A stretch of 64,000 bases of DNA from a bacterium (GTDB lineage: Bacteria > Patescibacteriota > Minisyncoccia > Phycocordibacterales > CAIZLB01). This document shows positions 2,635 through 24,981 of this stretch, piece after piece. The stretch covers positions 24,096 through 88,095 of the forward strand of contig JBAXXP010000003.1 in NCBI GenBank assembly GCA_037127815.1. The letters run 5' to 3'. Below the pieces are notes generated by a model. It searched no databases. It was not told the DNA's origin and saw nothing but the letters and a program-made list of their open reading frames with translations. How positions within the stretch are numbered: position 1 is the stretch's first letter; every line of letters begins with the position of its first letter. The translations under genes were made by a program, and so were the position numbers.

Positions 2635-3972
2635 ATGATATATATGGAAACAAAAGATCAACGCCAAATTAGCCCTGATTTGAGACAAACCTTATCAAGC
2701 CCTGTAAGGGTGAAATATTGCCTTTATGCGAGGAAATCGACGGAATCTGAGGAAAGACAGATCTTATCAATAGAATCGCAAGTAAATGAGATGTTACAGA
2801 TAGCTGAGAGAGAAGGATTAGAAGTTGTGGACATTAGACGTGAATCGCACTCCGCAAAGGATTCTGGGCAAAGACCTGTTTTTAAGGAGATACTTACAGA
2901 TATCAGAAGTGGAAGATATTCAGGAATACTAACATGGGCACCCGATAGATTATCGAGAAATGCTGGAGACCTCGGAAGTCTTGTGGATCTTATAGATCAA
3001 AAATCACTTATTGAGATAAAAACCTACGGACAAGTATTCAGCAACTCCCCGAGTGATAAATTTCTACTAATGATTTTATGTTCACAAGCTAAGCTTGAAA
3101 ATGACAACAAGAGTGTAAACGTTAAAAGAGGACTGCGAACAAGATGTGAAATGGGATTATGGCCTGCCCCTGCCCCAACTGGATATTTGAATGAAAAAAG
3201 AATAGATAGAAAAGGATACGTAATGGTTGATACAGAACGTGCGCCTGTTATTAAGAAGATGTTTGAAAAGGTGGCGTATGAAAAATGGAGCGGAAGAAAA
3301 ATATACCATTAGCTTAAATTTGAAATGAATTTCAGAAGTTCAACGAGCAATAAGCCCTTAACTTTGAGCAATATATACAAACTTCTCCAAACACCATTTT
3401 ATTATGGAAAATTTGAATATCCTGTCAAAAGTGGTAATTGGTATATGGGAAAGCACGAACCTTTGATAAACATAGAACTCTTTGAAAAAGTCCGTGAGCA
3501 ACTTAAGAGATCTGAAATAACACACGAGAGAAAAGACTATGCGTTTTCTAGACTTATGACATGTGGGTTATGTGGATCAGGAATATGTGCTGAAGATAAG
3601 TATAAGAAACTCAAGAATGGTGGTACGGCACATTACATATACTATGGATGTAATAGATCAAAGAATTTGGATTGTAAATGTGGATATATAAGAGAGGAAG
3701 AGTTGATAAAGCAATTGGTTGAAATGATAGACAAGATAGAGGTTGATCAGAAGTTTATCAAAGGCAAATTTGAACAAGAACGAGAACGTATGGTTACGTT
3801 CCAAAAACAATTTTACGGAGTCAAACAATCAAAGCTTGAGATTGAATTTGATTCAAAGAAGTATACTGAGCATGTTTTGACAGAAGGGACAGTTGAGGAG
3901 AAAAGAGAGATGTTGGCAAATCTTAAGGGTAAAGTTATTATGAAAAATAAGGAAATAATTATTACGCAGTAG
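2635..3972 (+). pseudogene. Large serine recombinase interrupted by a single in-frame TAG at 3310-3312 (ORFs 2635..3312 and 3325..3972 are in the same frame)
   Basis: The N-terminal part (YCLYARKSTE...SIESQ...TWAPDRLSRNAGD) and the C-terminal part (zinc-ribbon CGLCGS...YYGC) are collinear with the intact paralog at 19034..20347. 3325-2635=690 is divisible by 3 and only a TAG separates the two ORFs. TAG is a normal stop elsewhere in the window. Confidence 0.7.
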
Positions 3973-7911: not shown

Positions 7912-9234
7912 CTAGTTAATTTTCTTACGCTTCTTGCCAGTCTCTTTCTCCCAACGATTCATAATTACTTCAGCATAGACATGAGATTTTTCCATGATAA
8001 AGCAACGTCGACCCATCTTCACAGATGCAATTAAAGTACTTCCGCTTCCTCCAAACGGTTCAAGAATTAAATCGTTTCTTTTCGTTAATACTTTAAGGTA
8101 TGGAATAAGTAGCTCTAGTGGTTTTGTGCCAAAGATAATTTCTTGCCCTGATGATTTTTTATCTGCGGCGGTATGAGATATGAAATCAGTTGGACATATC
8201 TTCTTTCCTTTTTCATATGGTTCAAAATGTGGTTTACCTGAAGTGGCAAAGATTGCATTCTCATATTCATTTTGAAACAATCCCTCCTCAGGCTCAAGAT
8301 TGAGATCTACTTCTCCTGAAGTTCCAACAAGTGCAATATCTGTCTTATTGAAAAACTTATTTGAAGCAGAAAAACCTTGCATACGATTAGGAACATGCCA
8401 AGTGATTGTGTTTCTATATTTCCAATGTACTTCGAGTGCATTCCAGATGGTTCTAAGGTTTTTTGGATTCTCAAAGATAATGATTGAGAAGTCAGGTTTT
8501 TGTACCTTTGCAACATTTGCCATCCAAAGATCCGAGAAATTATCAGGCAAGACATCAGTCTCTAAATATCTGCGATTCTTCTTTGATCCAAATCCAACTG
8601 TTGGACCATCCTTACCTCGACCTTTACCTTTTAAATAGTCTAAGATATATGGTGGATCAGTTAGCACCATATCTACCTTGTTATCTCCCATTAGTTTCAA
8701 CATATCGGCTTCTATTGTGGAATCGCCAATCATTAATCTAGAGTCTCCGAGTTCATAGATATCGCCCTTTTTTGCTTCAACTTTAATGTCGAGCTTATCG
8801 AGTTCTTTTTGTAAATCAAATTGCTCTTCATTTTTCTCGATTGGAAATATGTCATCAATGTCTTCTGAGGTAAAACCAACATCAAGAAGAATTGAGCTAT
8901 CAAACTCAGCGAGCATCTCAAGATCAAATTCTCCTTGATTGCGATTAAGTCTGAGGTTAAGTTCAAGCTCTTTTTCAAGAGGTAAATTCACAAATACTAC
9001 TGGCATATTTTTATATCCAAGTTCCTTGCATACATCAACCCTAAAATGACCTCCAACAATTATCATCTTTCTATCTTCGTGATTATTTACAATAATCGGA
9101 TCAACATTACCGAAACGTCTAATACTTTCCTTGAGCTGTTCTTTTTGCTCCTTACTCCACTTGCGTGGATTTTTATCATTTACCTTCAACTCGTCGATTG
9201 AGACGTACTCAATCTTTAAACTTTCTTTATTCAT
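7912..9234 (-). CDS. ParB-like nuclease domain fused to an N6A/N4C DNA methyltransferase (beta class); phage-type orphan methyltransferase
   Basis: The N-terminus has a ParB-N motif (KNPRKWSKEQ...GGHFR). The methyltransferase motifs are DPPY (IV) then FGGSGST (I), in beta-class order. This fusion is frequent in phage genomes next to terminase genes. Confidence 0.8.
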   Translation of the reverse strand: MNKESLKIEYVSIDELKVNDKNPRKWSKEQKEQLKESIRRFGNVDPIIVNNHEDRKMIIVGGHFRVDVCKELGYKNMPVVFVNLPLEKELELNLRLNRNQGEFDLEMLAEFDSSILLDVGFTSEDIDDIFPIEKNEEQFDLQKELDKLDIKVEAKKGDIYELGDSRLMIGDSTIEADMLKLMGDNKVDMVLTDPPYILDYLKGKGRGKDGPTVGFGSKKNRRYLETDVLPDNFSDLWMANVAKVQKPDFSIIIFENPKNLRTIWNALEVHWKYRNTITWHVPNRMQGFSASNKFFNKTDIALVGTSGEVDLNLEPEEGLFQNEYENAIFATSGKPHFEPYEKGKKICPTDFISHTAADKKSSGQEIIFGTKPLELLIPYLKVLTKRNDLILEPFGGSGSTLIASVKMGRRCFIMEKSHVYAEVIMNRWEKETGKKRKKIN

Positions 9235-10235: not shown

Positions 10236-10371
10236 GATATTCCGACCATATCCTAGAGAATTAAGGGTTCTTTAGGGGTTAGGTCTTTGTTGTTAATGAA
10301 ATGATAGCAGAAAATTTGCTATCTGTCAGTAGCTTAGATATGAGGGTTTGCGAAGCAGAAGTTACCAACAG

Positions 10372-13300
10372 CTAAACTGGCTGAAATTCTCGATAGACAC
10401 GAACTGTTTCCATATAAATAGATTCAATTAAACGTTCCGTTTGCATAATTTCTGTAATTCCTTTTTGAATCAAAAGAAGTCTTACATTCTGACGAATTCG
10501 AGCTTTAATAGTTTCATTATTTGTCCAATCAATAGTTAAGTCTCGACGGATACGCTTTGTAAGTTCTTTTACAAAGTCTTTGATATCTATTCCAGATTTT
10601 TTAAGATCAGGATCTGTCTGAAGAGTATCGTAGAAAGTTATTTCTTCAGGTGAGAGTCCGAGTGATTGGCTCTCTTCATCAAGTTTCTTGATCTCATCAG
10701 CAATTTCCAAAAGTCTTTTGATAATCTCAGCGGAACTGATTACATTATTTTCGTATTTCTCAATAAGATCAGTAAGGAGTGTAAGCATAGTCTCATAACG
10801 AGCCTTGTTCATTTTCATACGAGAAATAATTTCTTGATCAAGTAGTTTGCGAACTGCATCTACAGCAAAGTTTTGGAATCTAACTTTTTTAATTTCTTCC
10901 ACAAACTTCGAATCAAAGATTGAAATACTTTTAGAATCTCCGTTTGTAGAGAACAGATTAATAATATCTTCCGCTTGTATCGCATCATGCACAAGACTAC
11001 GAATAGCACTTTCCGTCTCTTCTGGAAATACCGCCTTAGGTACAACTGTTTGTTTATTAATACTTTCTTTTACTGCCTGTAGAAACTGAATGTCGGTAAT
11101 AATATTCATTGCAGGAGTTGAGGGCATTACAAGAGCATGAAGTTTTGATAGTTTAGATACAACTCCAATATATGCCATCTTTTGGTCATCAGAAAGACGC
11201 TCGTCCTTTGAAATAACCGCATTGATTGATTCTTGAAGAAGATTAGAAAGTTCGATTCCCTTAAGATTTCTCCATCCACTGAAATTTACTCCATACAAAA
11301 AACCAACCGCTTCTGCATGAGAATGATTCATTTCAGAAATAATTTCATCAAGTGGTAGTAAAGCATTGTTCTGTATATCAGAATCATACATCGCGAGAGC
11401 TTTCTTTAGATTTTCAGCGATACCGATATAGTCAACGATCAATCCACCCGGCTTGTCTTTGTATACACGATTTACACGAGCAATTGCTTGCATAAGTCCG
11501 TGGTTCTTTAATGGCTTATCCAAATACATAGTATGCAGATTTGGCACATCGAAACCAGTAAGCCACATATCACACACAATTGCGATCTTGAGTGAATCAT
11601 TTGTTTTCTTGAATCGCTTCTCGAGCTTCTTCATATCACGTTCTGACTGTATCTCATTCGCAAATTCTTCACTATTTGAAATAACCACAGCACATTCTGG
11701 TGCTCCAACAATTTTCTGTATTTCTCTATAGATTGATACTGCAATACGACGACTCATTGTTACCACCATAGCCTTACCACTAATAGGTCGATTATTAAAG
11801 TGATATACAATATCTTTTGCAACTTGCTCAATACGACTTTGTGATCCCACTACTTCTTCAAGCACTGCCCATTCTTTTCGAGCTTTTGCTTTTTCTTCTA
11901 CAACAATTTCTCCCAAAATATCATCAAGTTTTGAATCAACGAATTTATCCGCTAGATGAAGTGGAACCAGGCGTCCTTCATAATAAATAGGAACGGTCGC
12001 ACCATCTTCTACTGCTTGTCCAATTTTGTATGAACTAACAATTGGACCGAATACTGCAAAAGTATCCTTATCGTTTTGCGATATCGGTGTTCCTGTCACA
12101 CCCAAAAAGCTCGCATTTGGCAAAGCCTGTCTTACTGCACCAGCAAAGACACTGTACTGAGTACGATGAGCTTCATCCGTAAGAACAATAAGGTTCTCTC
12201 TTTCTGATAGGACATTCTTTGCATCAGGATCATCTTGAAACTTCTGTATTGTAGTAAAAATGAGTTCACTACCAATGTTTTTTAATCTCTTTTGTAAATC
12301 AAGAATACTACATGCTCTCTTTGCAAGATTGTCATAACCAGTTCTTTTGAATGTTTTATATAGCTGATCATCTAAGTCTTCACGATCCGTCAAAAATAAA
12401 TACGCAGGACTTTTCAATTCTTCAATATTCTTAGTCTTGTTTACATAAAAAACCATAGAGAGTGATTTACCAGATCCTTGTGTGTGCCAAAAGACTCCAA
12501 TCTTACGATCTTGTTCTCCACGCACAGCACGAAGTGTGCTTTCAACTGTTGTATTTACTCCGTAGTATTGATGGTACAAACACATCTTTTTTGTGAATGT
12601 TACAGCTTCACCATCTCCATCCGCTTCAAAAACAAAGAAGTTTTGTAAAACATCCAATAGTCGTGTTCGTTCAAATAATCCTTTAGTTAGTACTTCTAGC
12701 TGATTAGTATTCTTTGGAGCATCAATAGGCGTTGTGATTCCTTTCCACGTTCCATATCTTTCCCATGAAGATGAGATAGTCCCATGTCGTGCATTAATAA
12801 GATCAGAGAGGCCAATTATTTGATTGTATAAAAAAAGCTTAGGTATTTCTTTCTTGTATCTTTCAATTTGACGGTATGCTTCACCGATAGTTACAGATCC
12901 ATGAACAGCACTTTTAAGTTCAAACAAGCCAACAGGTAAACCGTTGATAAAAATAACCACATCAAAGCGATTTGTAGTATCTATTCCTTGTACAGTAAAT
13001 TGATTGACCACCAAGAATTCATTGTTATCTCCATTTTTAAAATCAAGAAGTTTAACTAAATCTGTTTTTTCTTCGCCGTTTTCTCTCCATGTTGTTTTTT
13101 TGCCATTCACGAGCCATGAATAAAACTCCTTATTCCCAAGCATCGGATCATTATGGTGATAATCAGAAATTTCTTTTACTACAATCTCTGCTTGATCAGC
13201 GGGAATTTGAGGATTAATTCTGCGAACAGCACCAAGAAGACGATCTTTTAAAACTACACCCCGAAAATCCTCACGTTCTGCATGAGGTTGCCCAGGATTA

Positions 13301-13392
13301 ATATCCGGACCGTATACATACTCATAACCTTGATCTTGTAGCCATTCAATGAGTGATTGTTCTGTTAAATTGTTTTCGTTTAAGTTTTTCAT
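10372..13392 (-). CDS. hsdR: Type I restriction enzyme R subunit (HsdR)
   Basis: 1006 aa with SF2 helicase motifs (HTQGSGKS, DEAH-like LTDEAHR) and an N-terminal nuclease region. Last gene of the RM operon. Confidence 0.9.
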   Translation of the reverse strand: MKNLNENNLTEQSLIEWLQDQGYEYVYGPDINPGQPHAEREDFRGVVLKDRLLGAVRRINPQIPADQAEIVVKEISDYHHNDPMLGNKEFYSWLVNGKKTTWRENGEEKTDLVKLLDFKNGDNNEFLVVNQFTVQGIDTTNRFDVVIFINGLPVGLFELKSAVHGSVTIGEAYRQIERYKKEIPKLFLYNQIIGLSDLINARHGTISSSWERYGTWKGITTPIDAPKNTNQLEVLTKGLFERTRLLDVLQNFFVFEADGDGEAVTFTKKMCLYHQYYGVNTTVESTLRAVRGEQDRKIGVFWHTQGSGKSLSMVFYVNKTKNIEELKSPAYLFLTDREDLDDQLYKTFKRTGYDNLAKRACSILDLQKRLKNIGSELIFTTIQKFQDDPDAKNVLSERENLIVLTDEAHRTQYSVFAGAVRQALPNASFLGVTGTPISQNDKDTFAVFGPIVSSYKIGQAVEDGATVPIYYEGRLVPLHLADKFVDSKLDDILGEIVVEEKAKARKEWAVLEEVVGSQSRIEQVAKDIVYHFNNRPISGKAMVVTMSRRIAVSIYREIQKIVGAPECAVVISNSEEFANEIQSERDMKKLEKRFKKTNDSLKIAIVCDMWLTGFDVPNLHTMYLDKPLKNHGLMQAIARVNRVYKDKPGGLIVDYIGIAENLKKALAMYDSDIQNNALLPLDEIISEMNHSHAEAVGFLYGVNFSGWRNLKGIELSNLLQESINAVISKDERLSDDQKMAYIGVVSKLSKLHALVMPSTPAMNIITDIQFLQAVKESINKQTVVPKAVFPEETESAIRSLVHDAIQAEDIINLFSTNGDSKSISIFDSKFVEEIKKVRFQNFAVDAVRKLLDQEIISRMKMNKARYETMLTLLTDLIEKYENNVISSAEIIKRLLEIADEIKKLDEESQSLGLSPEEITFYDTLQTDPDLKKSGIDIKDFVKELTKRIRRDLTIDWTNNETIKARIRQNVRLLLIQKGITEIMQTERLIESIYMETVRVYREFQPV

Positions 13393-13396
13393 AATA

Positions 13397-15169
13397 TTAA
13401 TTAATTTTTTCTGAAAGAAAATTAAAGATTTTCAAGAATTTATTTTTAGTTTCATTCGAAATTTCAAACTCCTTATTTTCAGCCAAAAGCATTTGAATCC
13501 CACTATTGAATTTTGATTTTTCATAAACTGTGGACTTTGGATCAAAATACTTAGTGATTCCAAGTTTTTCTGTTTTACTAAACAGTTCTTCACAAGAGCA
13601 CTTATCAAAAGAAATATCTATGTCACTTAAATCGAATATTCGATTATGAATATCGACACCAAACTCTTTTAAATATCTTTTCTTTTGTAACTTTCCTTCC
13701 TTATCTGCATCTAATAAACCAACGAAATTTCTACCCCATGATACATACAGAGCAATTGGTTGATCTAATTTACTTGCACCTGTTCCTGGATAAAAATTAA
13801 AATTCTGTAATTTTAAAATAACTTTGCAGATGTACTTAAGCGAATAATAATCATTTTTCCCTTCAGTTATAATTATTGGAGGCACCTCTTCTAATAGACC
13901 AGGTTGATATTCGAGCACATCCAGAATAGGCTGAAAATAAGCAGCGTCTGAAGGATTTTCTGCGACAAATTTTTTGTACTGTATTGCTTCAACATCAGTT
14001 TGTGAAGCATCAAAACTTACCTCATCATTATAATTTAACGCCTTATTTCGAACAATGTACGCTCCAGATAACCATTCTGGATTAATTAGATGATGACTAT
14101 GGGTCGTATAAATTAACTTTGATTTCTTTGTGATCTCACTAAATGTACTCAACAGATTCTTCTGAGCAGTTGAATGTAGATTTGAAGCTGGCTCATCCAA
14201 TAGAAAAAGTATTTCCCCAGAACTTGAAATTCTTTCTTTTCTAAACTCAGTAAAAAGAAGGAAAGTAAAAAACCACCTAAAACCAAGACTTCTTTCTGAT
14301 ATTGAGAAAGTATCTACACCTTCTTTAAGACGAAGTTCTAAATAACTCCTACCTTCTGGATCAATATCGGTTGAAACAATGATTTCCTTTTTCCCAATTT
14401 TTGAAAATTTACCCCAAGCTGAAAATACCACTTTTGAAATTTTAGCAGCCATCAAACTCTCGGTTTTTTCTAAAGCTTGCTTGTTTGCAGCAGTAGACTT
14501 ATTCTTTAAATTATTCAAAATTGTTTCTTCTACAGTAAATGTCCCATTGATTGTAGATAATACATCTTGAATAATGTTGTAATACTGCATCTCTGTAGAA
14601 GATACTGTATTAGGTTCGAGATATATCCTCTCTGGAAACTTCGCCAAGAAGTCTGGATAATATATTACTTCTGGTAAAAATTCTTCTTTTATATGTTTAT
14701 AAATTTGTTGCTTTTCATTTAATGGTAACTCGATAAATTTACCACCTTTTTTCTTTTGTCCTTCAATATCTAATCCGAATTTAATTTCAGTAGTAGTTGG
14801 AATAGCTCGATCAAAATTATAATATCGATAAATTTTTAAATTTTCAGGGAATTTGAAATCAACGTACTTTGTAATATTTGTATTTATATATTTTTTAATT
14901 TCTACAACATCATCTGATGAAAAATTTATTGTTGCTATTATTTCAGTGGCACCAGTAAAGCTTGCAGTATCAGATTTTGGTATGAGATTATGTCGTTGAT
15001 CCATGAGTGCTTCATTGGAAAGATTATAAATAGCCTCTAGAATAGTTGTCTTACCACTCTCGTTTAAACCAACTAAAGTAAAAATTTTTGAATCAACAGG
15101 AAAATTAACATTAAGATTTAGTTCTTTAATGCCCTTATATTTTTTTATTTTAAAATTTGAATAGTACAT
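13397..15169 (-). CDS. OLD-family / Gabija GajA-like ABC-type ATPase with C-terminal Toprim nuclease domain, embedded between hsdS and hsdR
   Basis: Walker A GLNESGKTT, ABC-type Walker B LLDEPASNLH and H-loop TTHSHH. C-terminal Toprim motifs IIITEGKNDY and LLDADKEG. Gaps of 5 bp and 4 bp to the flanking genes imply one operon. Confidence 0.75.
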   Translation of the reverse strand: MYYSNFKIKKYKGIKELNLNVNFPVDSKIFTLVGLNESGKTTILEAIYNLSNEALMDQRHNLIPKSDTASFTGATEIIATINFSSDDVVEIKKYINTNITKYVDFKFPENLKIYRYYNFDRAIPTTTEIKFGLDIEGQKKKGGKFIELPLNEKQQIYKHIKEEFLPEVIYYPDFLAKFPERIYLEPNTVSSTEMQYYNIIQDVLSTINGTFTVEETILNNLKNKSTAANKQALEKTESLMAAKISKVVFSAWGKFSKIGKKEIIVSTDIDPEGRSYLELRLKEGVDTFSISERSLGFRWFFTFLLFTEFRKERISSSGEILFLLDEPASNLHSTAQKNLLSTFSEITKKSKLIYTTHSHHLINPEWLSGAYIVRNKALNYNDEVSFDASQTDVEAIQYKKFVAENPSDAAYFQPILDVLEYQPGLLEEVPPIIITEGKNDYYSLKYICKVILKLQNFNFYPGTGASKLDQPIALYVSWGRNFVGLLDADKEGKLQKKRYLKEFGVDIHNRIFDLSDIDISFDKCSCEELFSKTEKLGITKYFDPKSTVYEKSKFNSGIQMLLAENKEFEISNETKNKFLKIFNFLSEKIN

Positions 15170-15174
15170 ATAAT

Positions 15175-16314
15175 CTAAATTAATTTTGCCAATAATTGAT
15201 CTCTTTGTGACCTTAGAGAAATGTTTTCAACATATAACGATATTTGTTTTTCAAATAAGTTACTTAGAATTTTGTCAGCTTTTCTGAGTAAGGATTCATT
15301 AGGTATTAGAACTAATGCGTCACTTATATGGTGTCTTTGTATGTGACCCATAGTCGTAGCTTTTCCTTCTGCAATCGCTTTAAATTCTTGAAGGTGTCTT
15401 TGTAAATATTGATACACAAACCATTTTGGGTAATACTGCGAAGTGACTTTGAATATATGCTGATTCAAAATTCCATCTTCACCAATCCACACCATTACAG
15501 AAAGACTCCCAGACCAAGCAAACAAGATATCTCCCTTTTTGATAATGTATTTTGTGTCTATATTTTTAGTTGCTCGATCAGAACTTTTATCAATACCGGA
15601 ATTCATCTCTCGTATTTTGATAACAGGAAATGAATCTTCCTGTCTTTCAGCTGGATATTTTTGTGAAGCAACTCCATTTAAAAAATCAGCTATTTTATCT
15701 AATCTTTTAACCTCCCACCCTTCAGGAATTTCTCCTAAATCACTCTCAACCATTTTCACATTCTCATACCCTGGAAATTTGAAATCAATAAGCCATTCAT
15801 TAAAAATAGTCTGGGCTGTTGTTTCAAGATTTTTTATAATAATATTATTATTTTCTATTTTTTTATCATAAGCACTCAAAATAGAGGCAATCCTTTTTTG
15901 AGTTTCTTTACATGGTGTTTCTACACTAATACTGTAAATAGTATCTCGATTTAAACCAGGAACAGCAGAATCGCCTCCATATCTAGGTAGATTAATTCTT
16001 TGTAGAAGATAGTAAACATACTTTAAATCAAAATCTTCAGAAACTTCATCGACATAGAAAACTGTATCTATTGGATATGATTCCTTTTCTGAATATGATA
16101 ACGATCCGACATTTCCTTTACGACCAATTATTATGGATGGTTTTTTTACCTTTGATTCATTATGAAAACCTACTAAACCACTTGATGCATAAACAGGAAT
16201 AGCACCCATTACTCGATTACGTTCAGGTAATCCAAAACCATATTTAATTTCCATCAAATCAGAAATTTGATGTGCTGTTTTTTCAATATTTATTTGTTCC
16301 AATAATTTAGTCAT
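15175..16314 (-). CDS. hsdS: Type I RM specificity subunit (HsdS), two target-recognition domains
   Basis: 379 aa with the typical HsdS repeat architecture and conserved central/C-terminal helical spacer motifs. Confidence 0.85.
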   Translation of the reverse strand: MTKLLEQINIEKTAHQISDLMEIKYGFGLPERNRVMGAIPVYASSGLVGFHNESKVKKPSIIIGRKGNVGSLSYSEKESYPIDTVFYVDEVSEDFDLKYVYYLLQRINLPRYGGDSAVPGLNRDTIYSISVETPCKETQKRIASILSAYDKKIENNNIIIKNLETTAQTIFNEWLIDFKFPGYENVKMVESDLGEIPEGWEVKRLDKIADFLNGVASQKYPAERQEDSFPVIKIREMNSGIDKSSDRATKNIDTKYIIKKGDILFAWSGSLSVMVWIGEDGILNQHIFKVTSQYYPKWFVYQYLQRHLQEFKAIAEGKATTMGHIQRHHISDALVLIPNESLLRKADKILSNLFEKQISLYVENISLRSQRDQLLAKLI

Positions 16315-16315
16315 A

Positions 16316-17152
16316 TTATTTTTTACAATTAGAACACAGGTTCATACCTGTTAACGAAATTGATGCTGAATTAAAATCATAAGGATATGTTTTCCCACAC
16401 TTGCTACAAATCTGATTTCCTAACACATAGTGATTATTATTTAATAAATCAGACTTACCAAGAGAGAAGGATGTACTGTCTCCTAAAGTTGTAGCACTAA
16501 ACAAAACAGATTCTCTTTCTTTTTTCATGTTTTTAATCTGTTTTTCTAGCTGTGCAATTTTTTTACCAAACCCCTCTTGCTCTACAGCTGTTGCTGATTG
16601 AGCTAATTTCATTTTTTGATCTAACAAATCCATAACAAATGCTCTGTATGTTTCATTAAACTTTTCTTGAACTTCTTTTTCACTCCTAAGCGTTGGATCT
16701 ATATCAATCCAGTCCTCATACCCAGAGTTAACATTTAATTCAATCACAGATAAATGACGATCAATCTCATTTAGTTGAGGTTTTACATCTCTTGTTGCTT
16801 TCTTACTAAAGGTCATCACCCAGCAACGTAAACTACCAATTTGTTTTTGTATCGACTGCAAATTACGTACAGCAGACTGACCTTTTTTTCGAAGTATATT
16901 TTCACCTGTAACTTTTGAATACTCATTTTGGAATATACCTCCGGCTATTCCACCAGTTATACTTCCGAATACAGCTAAAAGATTTGAAAATAATTCATTT
17001 GTTTTAAACCATATAGATAGACCGAGTGAGATGATGGTAACTACTATAAAAACAAGGAACCATGGATCAAAAATCATGTTTGCAAAACTATTCCATTTTT
17101 GTTTAAGTCTAGTCATATATTTAAAATCCAAGTTCTTTAAGATTATTTTCAA
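16316..17152 (-). CDS. Hypothetical membrane protein: 2 N-terminal TM helices, coiled-coil, C-terminal zinc ribbon; embedded between hsdM and hsdS
   Basis: TM segments FLVFIVVTIISLGLSIWF and LLAVFGSITGGIAGGIF. C-terminal CSKCGK...CSNCKK. It overlaps the hsdM end by 32 nt and lies 1 nt from the hsdS start. Confidence 0.5.
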   Translation of the reverse strand: MKIILKNLDFKYMTRLKQKWNSFANMIFDPWFLVFIVVTIISLGLSIWFKTNELFSNLLAVFGSITGGIAGGIFQNEYSKVTGENILRKKGQSAVRNLQSIQKQIGSLRCWVMTFSKKATRDVKPQLNEIDRHLSVIELNVNSGYEDWIDIDPTLRSEKEVQEKFNETYRAFVMDLLDQKMKLAQSATAVEQEGFGKKIAQLEKQIKNMKKERESVLFSATTLGDSTSFSLGKSDLLNNNHYVLGNQICSKCGKTYPYDFNSASISLTGMNLCSNCKK

Positions 17153-18914
17153 TTTGTTTCTCTAGCTCTCGACCATTAGCAAAAGCATCTCTCAGTTCCA
17201 CCGAAAGCTTTTGCATTTTTTCTTCAAATGAAATTCCATCATCTTCTACATCAGCAAGTCCAACATATCTTCCCGGAGTTAATACGTATCCATTCTTTTT
17301 TATTTCTTCCAAATTTGCTGATTTACAAAAACCAGAAATATCTTCATATTTTTCTACACCTGATTCTTCACGCCAAGCTTTAACAGTATCTGTTATTTTT
17401 TTAATATTTTTTTCATTAAAAACTACCTGCTTACGTGAAATCTGTTCAAACGTATCTCGAGCATCAATAAACAAAGTTTCTCCAGATCGTTTTCGAAAAC
17501 GGTCACCACCTTTGTTTTTTGATAGAAACCAGAGAGATACAGGAAGTGATACGTTGTAAAAAAGTTTTGATGGACAAGAAATTATTACATCAACCAAATC
17601 TGCTTCTATAAGTTTTTGACGAAGCTCTCCTTCTTTACCAGATACAGCTAATGCACCATTAGGCATAACAAATCCAGCTTGACCATTTGGAGCAAGGTGG
17701 TGAGTAAAGTGCTGTACCCAGAGGAAGTTTGCATTTCCACTTGGGGGTATCCCAAGAAAGATTCTTGGATCATTATCAGAAAGTTTTGAAGGATCCCATT
17801 CTGCATTAAACGGAGGATTTGCAATTAAAAAATCTGCCTGGAGATGAGGAAACATATCTTTGTAATAAGTATTTCCAAGTTCAATCTTTCCTGAGAGACC
17901 ACGAATAGCAAGATTCATTTTACATAAACGAAGTGTTGTTTGATTACTTTCTTGTCCACTGATAGAAAGTTTTGAAGGATCCATCTTGTGATCTCGTAGA
18001 TATTCACCCATAGATACAAACATGCCCCCACTACCACAAGCAAAGTCTGCTACACGAGCATTTTCATACGGCTCAAGTATTTCTGTAAGAAGCTTAACAA
18101 TTGATCTAGGGGTAAAAAATTCCCCTCCACGTTTTCCTTCAGATGAAGCAAACTGACCTAGGAAGTATTCATAGATACGACCAAGAATATCTTTCTCACG
18201 ATCAAAATCATGGTCAAAAGAAATTTGTGAAAAGATATTTACAAGTTCTCCAAGAACAGTATGGTCAAGGTTTACTTTGGTATATACACGAGGAAGAACA
18301 TTTTCAAGTTGAACTGGATTATCCTTTTCGATGAGTTCCATTGCAGTATCAAGAATTTTTCCAAGATCAGAACTCATTGTTTTTGTTTGCAAAAATTCCC
18401 AACGAGATTTTTCTGGCACATAGAAAACCCCTTCTGATGTATAGAAGTCTTTTGTTTCAAGAATCGCTTTTCGTGCTTCTTCAGTAGGAACATAAAAGTC
18501 TTCGTTTTTTGGATCTTTTGTCAGATCAGCAAGAACTTCTCTTCGTTTATAGAATGAATCAGATATATATTTCAAAAAGAGAAGACCGAGAACAATATTC
18601 TTGTACTCTGACACATCCACATTGCCTCGCAATTTATCTGCCGCCATCCAAAGTTCTTTTTCAAAACTAAGGTCGTGGTGATGATTCTTATCTAAAACCT
18701 TTTTAGTGACGCTTTTTTGCTGTTCACTAATACGGTTCTGTATATCTTCTGAAAGAGAAGACATTGGGATCAAATATGTTGGTTTAGAGGGGTCTCCTAT
18801 ATTTTCAGCCTTAATTTCACCTTTTTTGATCTTTTGGTGAATGGCTATACGACTAATACCCAACATCTTTGCGAGTTGTGTAGGAGTTACAAATTGTGTT
18901 TTATCGATTGACAT
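17121..18914 (-). CDS. hsdM: Type I RM methyltransferase subunit (HsdM) with an N-terminal HTH extension
   Basis: Catalytic NPPF motif (LIANPPFN) and AdoMet motif DFACGSGGMF. The first ~70 aa (LAKMLGISRIAIHQKIKKGEI) resemble a MerR/excisionase-type HTH that HsdM normally lacks. Confidence 0.9.
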   Translation of the reverse strand: MSIDKTQFVTPTQLAKMLGISRIAIHQKIKKGEIKAENIGDPSKPTYLIPMSSLSEDIQNRISEQQKSVTKKVLDKNHHHDLSFEKELWMAADKLRGNVDVSEYKNIVLGLLFLKYISDSFYKRREVLADLTKDPKNEDFYVPTEEARKAILETKDFYTSEGVFYVPEKSRWEFLQTKTMSSDLGKILDTAMELIEKDNPVQLENVLPRVYTKVNLDHTVLGELVNIFSQISFDHDFDREKDILGRIYEYFLGQFASSEGKRGGEFFTPRSIVKLLTEILEPYENARVADFACGSGGMFVSMGEYLRDHKMDPSKLSISGQESNQTTLRLCKMNLAIRGLSGKIELGNTYYKDMFPHLQADFLIANPPFNAEWDPSKLSDNDPRIFLGIPPSGNANFLWVQHFTHHLAPNGQAGFVMPNGALAVSGKEGELRQKLIEADLVDVIISCPSKLFYNVSLPVSLWFLSKNKGGDRFRKRSGETLFIDARDTFEQISRKQVVFNEKNIKKITDTVKAWREESGVEKYEDISGFCKSANLEEIKKNGYVLTPGRYVGLADVEDDGISFEEKMQKLSVELRDAFANGRELEKQIENNLKELGF

Positions 18915-19033: not shown

Positions 19034-20347
19034 ATGAAAATACAAAAACCGCTACAAGTGACTCCTGACGAGGTCGCACCAATTAAGTACTGTCTTTACG
19101 CACGTAAATCAACCGAGCAAGAGGATAAGCAAGCATTATCAATAGAATCGCAGGTTAAAGAGATGATAATTCTAGCCGAGCGAGAGGGGTTGGAAATAGT
19201 CGAAATTAAGCGAGAATCGCACTCCTCCAAGGAGGTTGGGCAAAGACCTGTGTATAACGAGCTTATCAATGAAATCAGACAAGGCAAGTTCAACGGAATT
19301 CTGACATGGGCACCTGACAGGCTAAGTAGAAACGCTGGAGACCTAGGATCAGTAGTTGATCTTATGGATCAGAAGCTTCTACATGAAATAAGGACTTATG
19401 GACAGAAGTTTACAAATAATCCAAATGAAAAGTTCTTACTGATGATTCTTGGTTCACAAGCAAAGCTTGAGAATGACAACAAGATGGTAAATGTGAAGCG
19501 AGGACTTAGAGCGAGGTGTGAGATGGGACTATGGCCGTCCGTTCCCCCAACTGGGTACCTAAGCCACTCTGATAGAAATAAAAAATGTGAAGTATTACCT
19601 GATGAACAGAGAGCTTGTGTGATTAAACAAATGTTTGAAAAAGTTGCATACGATGGATGGTCAGGTCGAAAACTTTTCAAGTGGTTAGAAGAAGATATAC
19701 GATTTAAGACAAAACATGGAAAAGCACTGACATTGAGTAATGTATACATAATTCTCAAAAGTACCTTCTACTATGGTGAGTTTGAATATCCAAAAGGAAG
19801 TGGACAATGGTATGTAGGAAAACATGAGCCAATCATAACCAAAGATTTATATAACCAAGTACAGGATAAGATAACAAATGATCACTTAACGAGAACCCAA
19901 GATAAAGAGTTTGCGTTTACTAAGATGATCACCTGTGGACTATGTGGATCAGGAATTACCGCTGATGAGAAATTCAAGAAACTCAAAGACGGAACAACAA
20001 ACAGATACGTATATTATGGATGTACAAAGTTTAAAGATAAGGATTGTCCGTGTGGATACATACGAGAAGAAGACCTAATCGAACAGTTGGCAAATATATT
20101 AGATACAGTTTCGTTAGATGAAATAGGTATGAAATATAAGATCAAAACTGAAATTGAGTCACACAACGAATTTCAAGAGTCAGTATTAGGAAAGGAGGTG
20201 AAAGAGAAAACAAAGATTAAAGATGTTGATATAAGAAACTATGCAAAGCATATTTTGCGGAAGAGACCACTGTACGAAAAGAGAGAACTACTAAGTCATT
20301 TAAGAAGTAAATTGGTACTAAACGAAAAACAAATTAAGATTAAATAA
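19034..20347 (+). CDS. Large serine recombinase (intact), paralog of the pseudogene at 2635..3972
   Basis: 437 aa. The resolvase catalytic domain has a YARKST...SIESQ serine motif. It is followed by a recombinase domain and a zinc ribbon (CGLCGS...YYGCTKFKDKDCPCGY). Confidence 0.85.
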   Translation: MKIQKPLQVTPDEVAPIKYCLYARKSTEQEDKQALSIESQVKEMIILAEREGLEIVEIKRESHSSKEVGQRPVYNELINEIRQGKFNGILTWAPDRLSRNAGDLGSVVDLMDQKLLHEIRTYGQKFTNNPNEKFLLMILGSQAKLENDNKMVNVKRGLRARCEMGLWPSVPPTGYLSHSDRNKKCEVLPDEQRACVIKQMFEKVAYDGWSGRKLFKWLEEDIRFKTKHGKALTLSNVYIILKSTFYYGEFEYPKGSGQWYVGKHEPIITKDLYNQVQDKITNDHLTRTQDKEFAFTKMITCGLCGSGITADEKFKKLKDGTTNRYVYYGCTKFKDKDCPCGYIREEDLIEQLANILDTVSLDEIGMKYKIKTEIESHNEFQESVLGKEVKEKTKIKDVDIRNYAKHILRKRPLYEKRELLSHLRSKLVLNEKQIKIK

Positions 20348-23300
20348 CCTCTGGAGTGATCGCATCAGAATTAATCTTTTCGGCATTTACTACTTCTGCA
20401 AGATAATCGTCTAAGACTTTGAAAACAGGTGCGAGATCCTCTCTATATGTTGCTGTGTAATTACCAACATACAACGTCTTTTCTTTTTCATTAAGATTCA
20501 TTGCCTTTATGGCGCTAGAATTTTTTTGCCAATATTCAGCTAATTTTTCCTTATGTAAAACCTTTGTAAATTCGTTAATGTGAGGAATATAATTCCGACC
20601 ATCTTCTCTTGCAGATGCAAATACACTTGCGAAATTTCTTAAAAGATAATCGATGAAATGCTCTACATTCTCGGGTGATGAAGGATTAAAGCACACGTCA
20701 AAGATGTAATCATTTATAGCATCAGCAATTTGATGACGGTCATCGTTTCCTGTTGGATCATAATATCCACAACCAACACCACTGCTTATTATTGAATTTC
20801 CAAGTTGATAAATAGTAAAGCCTGTTATTATACTCTTAAGTACAGCGACTTGTTTATCTAAATCACCTTGAGAAATCTTGCTATTAATGACTTGTGATTC
20901 TAGATAGTCTTTATACTGGCCTGCTAAATCTTTCAGTTCTAGATTTGATATTTCCTCAAAAATGTTTCGCTTAGTATCTATATACTGCTTTTTAAAAATA
21001 TCGAAGACTTTCTGTGATATTTCCCGCATTTCTTCCTTGGCAATCACTTGAGTATTTCCTTCAGTTGGTGCACCCTTATCAGAATGTTTTGATAATGCAC
21101 GACTCAAATCAAAAATATCTCCACCTCTGTCAGCACTGCAATACAAGCGAAACGCCATAAGATCGTAGAGTCCGAGAACACCTCTTGTCGGTAATGAAAG
21201 TTTTTCCAAAACACCACAGCCAGAGTGTTCTCCTTCTCCGAAAATCCATTCAGCAATTTCCTTTATGTTTTTTTCTGTATTCCCAGAATGTTTTCCTGAA
21301 TCATCACTCCATCCAGCATCATTCAATAGACGTATCAAGAATAGATCTGAGTCTTTTCTTAATCCTACACCAATATTCTCTATTTCAATATGCGAATAAT
21401 CAGGCAGATTATCAAGTAAATGGGTAATAAGTATATTACTAATATTTGGAGGTAAACTTCGAGCATTGTTTACTATAATTCGCCACAGCTTTGCACGAGT
21501 AAACTCACCTTTATCAAAGGCAAATTTCGGGTCAGCAAATGCATCTTCAATAGTTTTTGAACCTGAGGCTATCTCGTCTTTCCAGTTAGCGTAAAACCTA
21601 TGCTGTTCTGTATCTTCAGGTTTAGCAAATTCGACTATTAATCGCAAATACGCTTCCAAATTTCTTCCATTTGTCCATCCACCATTAAAACAGGCATATG
21701 AGGTTTTAATATCTTCTGATACACCATCTATACGAGCATACGTATCTCGGTGCGGAAACTCTGCATTTGTACCAAGTCTTACATTAACATCAAAAATCCT
21801 ATCAAGAAGAAATTTTTGACGACTCATGTCGGGAAAGTGTTTTATATATTCAGTGTAGTATGTTGAATTTTTATACTCTGATTCACTAAATGATCCTCTT
21901 CTCTGACTACTGTCCTCTATAGGATATCCATCTTCATGAGGTAGAACTAACGAAAAAAAACCTCGACTACCGTTTGTCTCGCTATCATAGATTTTTCTAA
22001 AAATATTTGGAAAGTGAATATAAATCAAAAGGAGGTGAATAAGATCTTGCTTATCAAAGTCAGTATTTTGAAAATCTGTACTTTCAAGTTCAAAAAGAAC
22101 CACCGTATTAATCAGTCTTTTAAGCTTTCTGACATCGCCAATAAATGGAAGATAGTTATGGTAGCCTGACGATTTATATATATCAAGTAAGCCACCTAAT
22201 GCCTGACGAACAAGAATAGGATCTACCAACTTAGTAGAAACAGCCTTATCAAGATTATCTGAAACATACTTAGCAAGATTTTCTTTATCAAGAAAAAGAC
22301 TAATTTTTATATTTACAAATTTTTCAAGAAACTCGCTTATCTTTTCAGCGTCAGGTGTCTCAGATTCAAGAATCCCTATATTTTCTGTATCATAACAAAG
22401 CACATAAGAAATATTTGGTAATACAAAGCTCTTTCTAATAACAAATAAAATATCCTTTATTTCAGAAAAAGTCATTCTATCTAAATCATCAACAATAATA
22501 ATAACTTTCTTTTTAAATCTTTTTAATACGGCATTTAAATCATCAAAAGCTTCGTCTGCGGTATAATCTACAGTCAATGTTGGTAAACTAAAACCAAAGA
22601 TTGAAAAACGATTAACCTCTCTAAGTAATCTAGCATATCTCGAAATCAAAGGTTTTATTTCTGGTACGAATGAATCTTTTTGAATTGAGTGTATTAATCC
22701 ATCAACAAAAACCTCCAATAAGTTTTTGCTCCCAGCATACCTCAAGGGGTTAAACTTAAAAATAACAGTTTTATTACTCTGATTTTCATCCCAATGTTCT
22801 TTACAAAAATTTATAAAAGAGGATTTACCAATACCCCAAGGAGCATCAACTCCAAAGACAAAACTTTCTGAGTTTCCATTATTGAAGACTCTTTCAGCAA
22901 ATTTATTAGCCTTATCAGCAAGATTGAGCAGATCATTTTTTCTTTCCTTAAGTTCATGATCTGAGAGAAAATTTGATTCAGTTTCTTTTTTCTTCCAAGA
23001 AATTGATCTGAAAATAACAAAAGCAGTAAGGATTACTGGAGCAAAAACTAAAATCAGTAATTGCTGAAATGAAAATGATATGACTAATTTTTTATACCAA
23101 TCATATAAAAATCCTCCCCATGCTACATCTATCCAAATACCGAAACAAAGAGCCGTTAAAACATCAAAACGATAGCTTCTATAAAATTTACACAGATCTT
23201 GAACAGTATCTCGTATCAACACATAAAACAATGTCGTAATAATACCCAATGACGCCCCCAAAATAATCCATCCTTCATGACCAAACTTCGATATTGCATT

Positions 23301-23531
23301 GTTTAATTGAAGAGAAAAAGCTTGTGAAAAATAGAAAACCTCAACAAATAAAATACCAAAAAATACTGTTTTTATAATGACAATAAGATTCGCCGTAATA
23401 AGCCCAGGATCAGAAAAATAGTCCTTAAATTTAGAATATTGTTGTTGGGTCCTTTTCAAAAGTGTAGTTTGCTTCATAACGGCAATTATACTGTTATTTT
23501 GAAAAAGTTCGAGCCCATGACTGGTGCTCAA
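20340..23531 (-). CDS. KAP-family P-loop NTPase with N-terminal multi-TM region
   Basis: 1063 aa with the KAP Walker A VDAPWGIGKSSF. Four to five hydrophobic helices precede the NTPase domain. Confidence 0.75.
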   Translation of the reverse strand: MSTSHGLELFQNNSIIAVMKQTTLLKRTQQQYSKFKDYFSDPGLITANLIVIIKTVFFGILFVEVFYFSQAFSLQLNNAISKFGHEGWIILGASLGIITTLFYVLIRDTVQDLCKFYRSYRFDVLTALCFGIWIDVAWGGFLYDWYKKLVISFSFQQLLILVFAPVILTAFVIFRSISWKKKETESNFLSDHELKERKNDLLNLADKANKFAERVFNNGNSESFVFGVDAPWGIGKSSFINFCKEHWDENQSNKTVIFKFNPLRYAGSKNLLEVFVDGLIHSIQKDSFVPEIKPLISRYARLLREVNRFSIFGFSLPTLTVDYTADEAFDDLNAVLKRFKKKVIIIVDDLDRMTFSEIKDILFVIRKSFVLPNISYVLCYDTENIGILESETPDAEKISEFLEKFVNIKISLFLDKENLAKYVSDNLDKAVSTKLVDPILVRQALGGLLDIYKSSGYHNYLPFIGDVRKLKRLINTVVLFELESTDFQNTDFDKQDLIHLLLIYIHFPNIFRKIYDSETNGSRGFFSLVLPHEDGYPIEDSSQRRGSFSESEYKNSTYYTEYIKHFPDMSRQKFLLDRIFDVNVRLGTNAEFPHRDTYARIDGVSEDIKTSYACFNGGWTNGRNLEAYLRLIVEFAKPEDTEQHRFYANWKDEIASGSKTIEDAFADPKFAFDKGEFTRAKLWRIIVNNARSLPPNISNILITHLLDNLPDYSHIEIENIGVGLRKDSDLFLIRLLNDAGWSDDSGKHSGNTEKNIKEIAEWIFGEGEHSGCGVLEKLSLPTRGVLGLYDLMAFRLYCSADRGGDIFDLSRALSKHSDKGAPTEGNTQVIAKEEMREISQKVFDIFKKQYIDTKRNIFEEISNLELKDLAGQYKDYLESQVINSKISQGDLDKQVAVLKSIITGFTIYQLGNSIISSGVGCGYYDPTGNDDRHQIADAINDYIFDVCFNPSSPENVEHFIDYLLRNFASVFASAREDGRNYIPHINEFTKVLHKEKLAEYWQKNSSAIKAMNLNEKEKTLYVGNYTATYREDLAPVFKVLDDYLAEVVNAEKINSDAITPEVI

Positions 23532-23585
23532 AAATATTCTTCCTAAACGACCATTTTAGGTGTTTAGGTAGGTCTCACTAAACTG

Positions 23586-23656
23586 CTGGGAGACTAGGAA
23601 TCGAACCTAGATTAAAAGCTTCAAAGGCTTCTGTCCTACCTTTAGACGATCTCCCA
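23586..23656 (-). tRNA. tRNA-Gln (anticodon UUG)
   Basis: Manual fold of the minus-strand sequence TGGGAGA TC GTCT AAAGGTA GGAC A GAAGC CTTTGAA GCTTT TAAT CTAGG TTCGATT CCTAG TCTCCCA G. It has a 7-bp acceptor with the U1:A72 typical of bacterial tRNA-Gln, a G73 discriminator and a GGTTCGATTCC T-arm. CCA is not encoded. Its 3' end points toward the KAP/recombinase island. Confidence 0.8.
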
Positions 23657-24479: not shown

Positions 24480-24480
24480 G

Positions 24481-24885
24481 TTAGATTAAAAAAGAAAGGA
24501 GTTTTGCCTTCACCCTTTCAAAATCACTTATATTCATATCCTCTATTTTCCTTATAAATCTTTTAAGACTGACTGAACGAGTCTGCGCCATATTCACTGC
24601 ATTTGGTATGCTTTTTCCATTTAAAAAATATACAAAATTTTTGTCGTCTTTCATCTTACTCGTAGTTGGCGCAACTAATGCTCCATATTTATTAAAAATC
24701 TTAATAACAACAACAGGTCTTTCAAAACCATGATTTTTACCACTTACTTCAACTCCAATATTTTGACCTAGGTTTACCCACCATATTTCTCTTGCTTTTG
24801 GATATAAAAATCTTTCAGATTTATGTATTCTTATTTTCAGATTATTCCACTTATTAAAAATTTCCGATATTTCATCATTATTCAT
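24481..24885 (-). CDS. MazF/PemK-family endoribonuclease toxin-like protein, no adjacent antitoxin gene
   Basis: Region REIWWVNLG...GFERPVVVI...VAPTTSK...KAKLLSFL aligns motif-for-motif with E. coli MazF (GDLIWVDFD...RPAVVL...CVPCTTQSK...IKAKINVLI). It has a 30-aa N-terminal extension. The 96-bp upstream gap holds no ORF. Confidence 0.65.
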   Translation of the reverse strand: MNNDEISEIFNKWNNLKIRIHKSERFLYPKAREIWWVNLGQNIGVEVSGKNHGFERPVVVIKIFNKYGALVAPTTSKMKDDKNFVYFLNGKSIPNAVNMAQTRSVSLKRFIRKIEDMNISDFERVKAKLLSFLI

Positions 24886-24981
24886 TCTAGAATTATAAAA
24901 TATGGAACCCTCAAATATTCTAAATATTTCCTAAAGAAAAACGAAAGAATTTATGAGATACACATGAAATTGAAGCTGGGT

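Follow-up and report, generated by a model that had tools for sequence, protein, structure and literature searches.

The window analysed here, a 64,000-nucleotide stretch of a patescibacterial contig, carries a type I restriction-modification (R-M) operon with the gene order hsdM-orf266-hsdS-OLD-like gene-hsdR, flanked by a recombinase gene and a hairpin:

19034..20347, + strand: large serine recombinase, divergent from hsdM (Resolvase, Recombinase and Zn_ribbon_recom); same arrangement in the sister cassette L093
17121..18914, - strand: hsdM, 597 aa, first gene of the operon (N6_Mtase, E 6e-100; HsdM_N)
16316..17116, - strand: orf266, 266 aa, between hsdM and hsdS, no family match; same position in L093
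15175..16314, - strand: hsdS, 379 aa, immediately upstream of the OLD-like gene (Methylase_S in two stretches, E 7e-29)
13397..15169, - strand: predicted OLD-family ABC ATPase-Toprim nuclease gene, 590 aa plus stop (open reading frame, AAA_15, P2 Old family hhalign, AF2/Foldseek)
10372..13392, - strand: hsdR, 1006 aa, immediately downstream of the OLD-like gene (HSDR_N, SWI2_SNF2, T1R_D3-like, T1RH-like_C)
10303..10323, - strand: terminator-like hairpin past hsdR, probable end of the operon

The 590-aa reading frame described in the first-pass annotation is present, begins with ATG and lies on the - strand, which that annotation had not given. Its position in the slot between hsdS and hsdR is confirmed by the Methylase_S and HsdR domain matches of the flanking genes. 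The stop of hsdS is 5 nt from the start of the OLD-like gene, whose own stop is 4 nt from the start of hsdR, and a terminator-like hairpin is found only after hsdR; these junctions and the hairpin bear out the proposed placement in the R-M operon. Promoter-like sites within the operon showed no excess above chance. The gene is probably co-transcribed with hsdM-orf266-hsdS and hsdR, and probably translationally coupled to them. Its GC content (29.8%) is lower than that of hsdR (36.1%) and hsdM (35.6%), and no junction repeats above chance were found around it.

The sister cassette L093, whose HsdR is 74% identical to that of the window, carries an unrelated gene in the exact hsdS/hsdR slot, and the homology between the two cassettes breaks exactly at the borders of the slot gene, documenting precise cargo swapping at this junction. 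The OLD-like gene, inserted there, is most likely a swappable cargo of a mobile type I R-M cassette, of which the serine recombinase is probably the mobility gene.

All five motifs quoted in the first-pass annotation (Walker A, Walker B/D-loop, H-loop, TEG and DxD) are found in the protein where they had been placed, within two domains:

14045..15169, - strand: N-terminal ABC ATPase domain, residues 1-375 (Pfam AAA_15/AAA_21; PDB profile matches)
15044..15070, - strand: Walker A GLNESGKTT, residues 34-42; K40 invariant in 80/80
14174..14203, - strand: Walker B and OLD-type D-loop LLDEPASNLH, residues 323-332; D325, E326 and H332 invariant; aligns with P2 Old IDEPELYLHP
14090..14107, - strand: H-loop TTHSHH, residues 355-360; H357 invariant; aligns with P2 Old STHS
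13400..13957, - strand: predicted C-terminal Toprim domain with helical extension, residues 405-590
13847..13870, - strand: Toprim motif 1 ITEGKNDY, residues 434-441; E436, G437 and D440 invariant; aligned with P2 Old VEGKTE
13694..13717, - strand: Toprim DxD motif LLDADKEG, residues 485-492; D487 and D489 invariant; aligned with P2 Old D453/D455
13517..13591, - strand: segment with invariant E527 and K551; candidate active-site roles, by analogy

Pfam AAA_15 spans residues 1-362 of the 590-aa protein (E 4.4e-16; 59.9 bits, cutoff 32.1) and AAA_21 residues 30-362, and in the ATPase domain Walker A is separated from the signature motif by a helical/beta insertion. In the PDB, the sequence profile of the family matches Thermus scotoductus (Ts) OLD and the retron Ec83 ATPases. 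Twelve residues (K40, D325, E326, H332, H357, E436, G437, D440, D487, D489, E527 and K551) are invariant in a sample of 80 diverse homologues that are 36-52% identical to the window protein, so the quoted motifs are not chance matches.

In OLD proteins the canonical aspartate of the ABC D-loop is replaced by a histidine (DEPxxxLH), H283 in Ts OLD (PMC7049728). The corresponding OLD-type histidine of the window protein is H332, which hhalign aligns with P2 Old H306, and E436, D440, D487 and D489 are likewise in register with P2 Old E398, E402, D453 and D455. [quoted passage not shown] In the second metal-B pair (S/T-x-E), E527 is invariant and position 525 is variable; the P2 Old family hhalign stops at residue 509. 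By analogy with Ts E480/R487 and Burkholderia pseudomallei (Bp) E508/K562 (PMC7049728), E527 may be the second metal-B ligand and K551 the transition-state lysine. On these residues, the ABC ATPase-Toprim enzyme is predicted to be catalytically intact.

Profile comparisons identify the C-terminal domain as an OLD-type Toprim. The first-pass annotation had claimed this domain and suggested alignment to P2 Old as a check. With family alignments on both sides, hhalign gives a collinear match of 437 columns at a probability of 90.5% (E 1.3e-6; about 19% identity to P2 Old in the profile alignment), in which Walker A, Walker B/LH, the H-loop, EGK (TEGKxD) and DxD are all in register. This comparison is informative only with the P2 Old family alignment, since against the single P2 Old sequence the probability is only 36% and the match runs from Walker B to the H-loop alone. 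The claim is further supported by PF20469, which matches in register in 10 of 16 C-terminal domains of family members, in every case below the Pfam gathering score. The window protein itself gave ATPase matches only, with no Toprim match in Pfam (E<=10), PADLOC, NCBIfam or PDB sequences; its sole 'Toprim' match in Pfam is a spurious one at residues 258-275. Among PDB sequences, an HMM built from the C-terminal domain gave no meaningful match. The AF2 model of the full-length protein (pLDDT 85.8) has GajA and Ts OLD as its top Foldseek matches, and together with the full-length homology to P2 Old this upholds the P2 Old/GajA-type architecture first proposed.

Searched against 1.84 billion representatives, the C-terminal-domain profile gave 884 matches at E<=1e-3. 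Among the best 150 of these the domain lies at the protein end, the proteins are mostly about 570-650 aa long, and there is no clear split form and no bridge to canonical OLD families. Some shorter proteins also occur among these 150, and could be gene-call fragments. By its sequences the clade is a distinct and divergent OLD branch with a wide but patchy distribution, comprising about 200-450 clusters at 50% identity from 329 species-representative genomes. Its members are labelled only 'AAA family ATPase' and their Toprim domain is missed by current domain libraries, so that defence-system finders probably under-count the clade, notably in Patescibacteria and Bacteroidota. The ABC ATPase classification of Krishnan et al. 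2020 (NAR 48:10045) may already describe it.

The assignment to class 1 of the OLD family, as first suggested, stands in part. Like phage P2 Old and Ts OLD (PDB 6P74), the clade has no adjacent UvrD/PcrA/Rep helicase gene. However, class 1 proteins carry R/K seven positions past the metal-B glutamate (Ts R487; in P2 Old the equivalent pair is E543/K550), whereas 79 of the 80 homologues have E or D at position 534, seven past E527, and an invariant lysine, K551, is found in the following helix instead. Class 1 also lacks a C-terminal helical domain, while in the AF2 model of the window protein three further helices (532-589) come after the Toprim core. PF20469, moreover, is not reached by the window protein, and the recurrent type I R-M context is a further difference from class 1.

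The missing helicase also bears on whether the protein is an orphan GajA of a Gabija system (class 2 OLD), with its GajB helicase encoded elsewhere or lost. The single UvrD-like reading frame of the window (46526-50152; an AddA-type helicase-nuclease of 1208 aa, UvrD plus PD-(D/E)XK) is 31 kb away, as the first-pass annotation had also found, and no UvrD-like gene is adjacent here or in 80 related loci. In class 2 proteins (B. pseudomallei OLD CTR, 6NK8; GajA, 8U7I and 8SM3) UvrD/GajB is adjacent, whereas in the clade it never is at the loci examined. In addition, the PADLOC GajA models match the ATPase part only, and in the PDB the profile reaches Ts OLD, of class 1, and not GajA. Gabija, lacking any UvrD neighbour, was rejected as the least probable of the readings considered.

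A fused PARIS, with AriA and AriB in one polypeptide, has somewhat more in its favour. AriA is the best PADLOC name (6.6e-20), PARIS fusions exist (PMC9122126, PMC10802454), and a system that counters anti-restriction would be at home in an R-M context. Its sensing of the anti-restriction protein Ocr ties PARIS conceptually to type I R-M. PARIS and the present protein also share the pairing of an OLD-type ABC ATPase with a Toprim nuclease. PARIS is defined by a DUF4435 (PF14491) Toprim, separate or fused, beside an AAA_15/AAA_21 ATPase (PMC9122126). Such an ATPase is present here, but neither 16 C-terminal domains (E<=10) nor 42 full-length members (E<=1) gave a DUF4435/AriB match, and the C-terminal domain of the clade is closer to OLD C-terminal regions than to DUF4435/AriB. 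The PADLOC AriA models act here as generic AAA_15/AAA_21 models, and PARIS was rejected as highly improbable. With no adjacent UvrD gene and no DUF4435, the system is neither Gabija nor PARIS.

The distribution of the family is informative as to how tightly it is tied to restriction. In 63 of 80 family loci there is no hsd gene within 8 kb, and about one in five lies in a type I R-M operon. The hsdS, hsdR and hsdM genes are the sole recurrent neighbours, no other conserved partner gene being found among the 80 loci. The R-M-linked members are spread over at least seven sequence clusters (average-linkage clustering), the tight arrangement hsdS-X-hsdR is seen in several phyla, and the two closest relatives (81% and 59% identity) are also directly after hsdS. 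Homologues were not found in phages, and those on plasmids reached at most 27% identity. Since most relatives have no hsd genes, the protein is probably autonomous, and we favour, with reasonable though not full confidence, a single-polypeptide OLD-family nuclease that is carried as cargo of the R-M operon and provides a second layer of defence. Nevertheless, what lies behind the repeated tight insertion between hsdS and hsdR could be a genuine functional tie, with the protein as guardian or effector, and not co-expression alone.

The slot itself recalls the PrrC/RloC anticodon nucleases, which also lie co-directionally between hsdS and hsdR and combine an ABC-type ATPase with a C-terminal nuclease. 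PrrC has an unrelated anticodon-nuclease domain where the clade has a Toprim, and PrrC homologues are predominantly R-M-linked as opposed to only about 20% of the clade. One may nonetheless speculate that the protein acts as a PrrC- or PARIS-like guardian, latent as long as the R-M system works. According to this speculation, a phage DNA mimic or Stp-like peptide that disables or binds the R-M complex would free the nuclease to act on tRNA or DNA, aborting the infection. We regard such a trigger, and the guardian role as a whole, as possible but rather unlikely. Some 80% of family members are without an hsd neighbour, so latency cannot generally depend on Hsd proteins; no DUF4435 or AriB-like signal was obtained; and the slot takes unrelated cargo, as in L093, which fits a neutral insertion hotspot. 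A narrower version, in which the R-M-embedded members are true guardians, functionally wired to the type I enzyme and possibly tRNases like AriB or retron Eco2, appears to us similarly doubtful. If true, it would give single-gene OLD nucleases a natural trigger, and would mean that evolution had solved the PrrC problem a second time, independently. In retron Eco2 (Ec67) the Toprim has a reverse transcriptase as its fusion partner and is caged by msDNA, whereas the partner in the present protein is an ABC ATPase.

OLD-type ATPase/Toprim modules embedded in methylation-based defence operons are known from other systems. OLD-ABC plus Toprim 'backup effector' modules occur inside BREX and BREX-related loci (PMC12839542), and in MADS, Mad3 combines an AbiEii-type ATPase with a putative OLD Toprim, beside a methyltransferase and an S subunit (MADS preprint/supplement). 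By analogy, the protein might serve restriction as an additional or substitute effector, working with the methylation-specificity module and degrading unmethylated DNA that the Hsd complex recognises or translocates. In PADLOC, mad3 ranks third among the matches of the full protein (4.4e-12), and mad4 matches 5 of 16 C-terminal domains (1.3e-5), but these matches are partial and weak. In MADS, deletion of mad5 (in the numbering of the preprint's main text) was possible only when mad2 or mad3 was removed as well (MADS preprint). In contrast to BREX and MADS, the present module is one fused gene, and its host is a type I R-M system of the classical kind with HsdR intact. The Mad6-8 genes (kinase, DptG-like protein and helicase), mandatory by the definition of MADS (preprint methods), are absent from the hsdM-orf266-hsdS-OLD-hsdR operon. 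HsdR is full length, with its own HSDR_N nuclease domain and D...ELK motif, so no replacement nuclease is needed, and most family members have no methylase neighbour. An effector role of this kind is accordingly improbable.

Returning to the autonomous nuclease, a mechanism may be outlined from the biology of OLD, GajA and PARIS. The ABC heads would dimerise, and ATP binding and hydrolysis would gate the Toprim active site, formed by E436, D487 and D489 at metal A, D440 and E527 at metal B, and K551. This site would then cut nucleic acid, whether phage or host DNA or tRNA. The outcome would be a second defence layer, independent of restriction and expressed jointly with the R-M system. In this model the R-M operon would give co-expression and a permissive insertion site, and would not be an obligatory partner.

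Single-gene OLD nucleases are widespread, yet little is understood of what triggers them and what they target physiologically. The clade is an interesting but unsurprising addition to the known OLD nucleases, and its repeated insertion between hsdS and hsdR offers a simple handle on whether OLD enzymes back up restriction, as PrrC and PARIS do. As a separate observation, orf266, the gene between hsdM and hsdS, did not figure in the first-pass annotation and belongs to a small family of 26 proteins.

The OLD-like gene is an open reading frame of 590 codons, fourth in a co-directional operon of type I restriction-modification (R-M) genes, laid out as follows:

17121-18914, minus strand: hsdM (N6_Mtase, E 6e-100)
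16316-17116, minus strand: orf266, 266 aa, function unassigned; the open reading frame reaches 17152 with a TTG start
15175-16314, minus strand: hsdS (Methylase_S, two target-recognition repeats)
13397-15169, minus strand: the OLD-like gene
10372-13392, minus strand: hsdR (HSDR_N, SWI2_SNF2, T1R_D3-like, T1RH-like_C)
10323-10303: terminator-like hairpin 3' of hsdR

The domain matches of the flanking genes agree with the first-pass annotation, which had placed the gene between hsdS and hsdR in a slot like that of the anticodon nuclease PrrC, and each of the five motifs quoted there was found at the expected residues of the 590-aa minus-strand product. The hsdS stop is separated by 5 nt from the OLD-like start, and the OLD-like stop by 4 nt from the hsdR start. 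Promoter-like sites show no excess in the operon (31 seen against 38.7 expected from shuffled sequence). Given these gaps, the lack of a promoter-site excess and the hairpin after hsdR, co-transcription with the R-M operon is the simplest reading.

Pfam AAA_15 matches residues 1-362 across its full model length, scoring 59.9 bits (E 4.4e-16; gathering score 32.1), and AAA_21 matches there as well. The best PDB sequences for a 42-homologue profile were the retron Ec83 ATPase and Ts OLD, the class 1 enzyme of Thermus scotoductus (6P74, E 1.4e-5); neither the class 2 enzyme GajA nor AriA, the ABC ATPase of PARIS, was found among PDB sequences by this profile. The D-loop is ASNLH, with a histidine invariant in 80 homologues, a departure from canonical ABC ATPases that was reported for OLD enzymes (PMC7049728).

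A C-terminal Toprim domain had also been proposed, with profile searches and an alignment to P2 Old, the founding member of the family, as checks; it was the least secure part of that annotation. The window protein alone has no Pfam Toprim match even at E<=10, its searches of PADLOC, NCBIfam and PDB sequences returned the ATPase part only, and an HMM built on the last 196 residues found no match among PDB sequences. At the family level, PF20469 (OLD-like_TOPRIM) was matched by 15 of 42 full-length homologues and by 10 of 16 isolated C-terminal domains (best E 6.5e-4), all below the Pfam gathering score; a few homologues matched Toprim_2, Toprim or Toprim_4, and every Toprim sequence match is individually sub-threshold. 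Where coordinates were inspected, the PF20469 matches span nearly all 67 model positions (residues ~431-491, TEGKxD to LLDxD). We also fetched the P2 old gene, collected its family, aligned 29 members and compared the two family profiles by hhalign, which gave a probability of 90.5% (E 1.3e-6) over 437 columns (query 4-509). The alignment stays collinear, taking in the N-terminus, Walker A, DEPxxxLH, the H-loop and then the Toprim motifs, and the catalytic motifs are in register: ITEGKND lies opposite VEGKTE of P2 (E436=E398, D440=E402) and LLDAD opposite DLD (D487/D489 = D453/D455). An OLD-type Toprim is supported by three independent lines: the family-level PF20469 matches, the P2 Old comparison and structural matches. 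Among structural matches, generic receiver-domain folds come next after the OLD matches, and Foldseek returned the same OLD matches with weak E-values. That the protein is a fused PARIS, in which AriA would be joined to the DUF4435 Toprim protein AriB, is highly improbable, as DUF4435 was not found.

Invariant or nearly so in the 80 homologues, which come from many phyla and are 36-52% identical to the window protein, are K40 (Walker A), S294 and G296 (signature region), D325/E326 (Walker B), H332 (D-loop), H357 (H-loop), and E436, G437, D440, D487, D489, E527 and K551. Judged from mutants of the Ts and B. pseudomallei OLD enzymes, E436, D487 and D489 would correspond to the metal-A ligands and D440 to the first metal-B ligand; candidates for two further roles are E527 (second metal-B ligand) and K551 (transition-state Lys/Arg). 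The predicted catalytic inventory of an OLD ABC ATPase-Toprim protein is shown to be intact, E527 and K551 standing as candidates. Architecture, fold, putative metal-A and first metal-B residues, D-loop histidine and profile homology to P2 Old are all those of the OLD family, and the protein belongs to a divergent OLD clade missed by current domain libraries. Its description as a class 1, stand-alone OLD holds by the operational definition, there being no helicase neighbour, but the candidate catalytic basic residue is not at the class 1 place. The Ts and P2 enzymes carry a basic residue 7 positions past the Glu (Ts E480/R487, P2 E543/K550), whereas the window clade has an acidic E/D534 at +7 and an invariant Lys in the following helix, which resembles the class 2 arrangement.

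The family is large, with more than 3500 full-length relatives of ~590 aa in a protein search (best label 'AAA family ATPase') and 329 carriers among genomes sampled once per species, including Patescibacteria, Bacteroidota, Proteobacteria, Cyanobacteria, Acidobacteriota, Leptospira and one Woesearchaeote. Against 1.84 billion representatives, the C-terminal profile found 884, 458 and 203 clusters (50% identity) at E<=1e-3, 1e-10 and 1e-30; in the best 150 matches listed the domain ends each protein, mostly of ~570-650 aa, and shorter matches could be gene-call fragments. No homologue was found in 50,697 phage records, and plasmid relatives are ATPases only, at <=27% identity.

Probing 80 fetched loci with proteins of the window turned up two or more hsd genes nearby in 14 (window contig counted), one in 3 and none in 63, counts that ignore kinship between loci. 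Clustering of three genes on each side recovered HsdS in 15 loci (11 at -1), HsdR in 13 (8 at +1) and HsdM in 11, and no other recurrent neighbour, UvrD-like or otherwise. The absence of an adjacent UvrD/GajB partner, remarked on from the window, thus extends to these loci; with no GajB in any locus examined, an orphan GajA is scarcely credible. The hsdS-X-hsdR order recurs in six loci (L013, L017, L020, L039, L041, L052), with gaps of -20 to +10 nt and -59 to +4 nt, and in L051 and L081 the OLD-like gene sits between hsdM and hsdS. The R-M-linked members are spread over at least seven sequence clusters, and hsdS likewise immediately precedes the gene in the window protein's two nearest relatives (81% and 59% identity). 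R-M linkage of the clade is recurrent yet facultative. In L047 (Flavobacterium covae CP067379) and L083 the R-M-embedded OLD-like gene and hsdR are each broken into several ORFs; these operons may be decaying, or the breaks may be assembly errors.

A search for orf266 homologues led to contig L093, which holds a sister cassette of the same layout: divergent serine recombinase, hsdM, orf266 homologue, hsdS and hsdR, with a ParB-methyltransferase gene nearby. The HsdR proteins are 74% identical, and nucleotide homology of ~72-73% covers the recombinase, hsdM, orf266 and conserved hsdS segments. The break in homology falls precisely on the hsdS stop codon (window 15169), and homology returns at the hsdR start (window 13383); between them L093 carries an unrelated 325-aa gene (L093:9852-10829, plus strand) of no detectable family, a candidate defence or toxin gene. 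The GC content of the OLD-like gene is 29.8%, against 36.1% for hsdR and 35.6% for hsdM. From the breakpoints, the unrelated gene and the lower GC, the hsdS/hsdR junction behaves as a cargo slot. That type I R-M operons can harbour defence or toxin genes has been recognised since PrrC, with a generalisation in 2012 (PMC3506569), and OLD-ABC/Toprim modules in BREX loci were described in 2026 (PMC12839542); a cargo swap is documented here at the hsdS/hsdR junction. L093 has a further 283-aa gene without known function between the orf266 homologue and hsdS (L093:7806-8657). The operon of the relative with 59% identity contains three additional genes at the hsdM/hsdS junction (RhuM, DUF4145 and an unassigned 206-aa gene; L088:3329-5687, plus strand), which is thereby shown to be a second slot for cargo in such cassettes. 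No family in Pfam, PADLOC or NCBIfam matches the orf266 product, whose own family is small, at 26 proteins; its homologues occur at the same position in L093, in an integrase island beside Fic, SduA_C and DpnI (L092), and alone (L094).

We consider it likely that the protein is an OLD-family enzyme and works autonomously, since ~80% of relatives lack hsd genes. In such an enzyme, ATP-controlled dimerisation of the ABC heads would gate a two-metal Toprim nuclease, which in the window would form a second defence layer co-regulated with restriction. DNA is the substrate cut by P2 Old, Ts OLD and GajA; tRNA is cut by AriB and by the retron Eco2 Toprim, the latter being among the closest structural matches. 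The prrC gene of EcoprrI occupies the same hsdS/hsdR position (PMC3506569; PMC12707154), and OLD-ABC/Toprim modules have been proposed as BREX backup effectors (PMC12839542). One may thus speculate on a guardian that, like PrrC or PARIS, is switched on when restriction is inhibited; we regard this as rather unlikely, and if true it would add interest to the finding. Weak mad3 and mad4 HMM matches would suit a MADS-like effector, a nuclease acting with a methylation module, which the intact HsdR makes very doubtful. We assign the protein to none of Gabija, PARIS, PrrC or MADS.

Several further genes surround the operon. Large serine recombinase paralogues (2635-3312 plus 3325-3972, and 19034-20347, all plus strand) bracket the R-M region in direct orientation, 16.4 kb apart and ~72% identical in nucleotides; the left copy may be a pseudogene or frameshifted, as its Resolvase domain and its Recombinase/Zn-ribbon part are on separate ORFs. 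Downstream of the R-M operon, a 440-aa fusion of ParB_N and an N6/N4 DNA methyltransferase (7912-9234, minus strand) is kept beside the sister cassette in L093. At the island edge, a 665-aa product (486-2483, minus strand) carries a D12-class N6-adenine methyltransferase domain (E 3e-57) and is a further predicted orphan or type II-like methylase. Adjoining the right recombinase is a 1063-aa KAP-family P-loop NTPase (20340-23531, minus strand; PF07693, E 1e-39) with a PADLOC PifA match (1.7e-27) and a weak QatA match, which could be an additional defence gene of this island; tRNA-Gln (23585-23656, minus strand) lies just past it. Beside the island is a PemK-family toxin gene of 134 aa (~24480-24890, minus strand; L001:285-689), called from Pfam domains precomputed for L001, the identical public contig.
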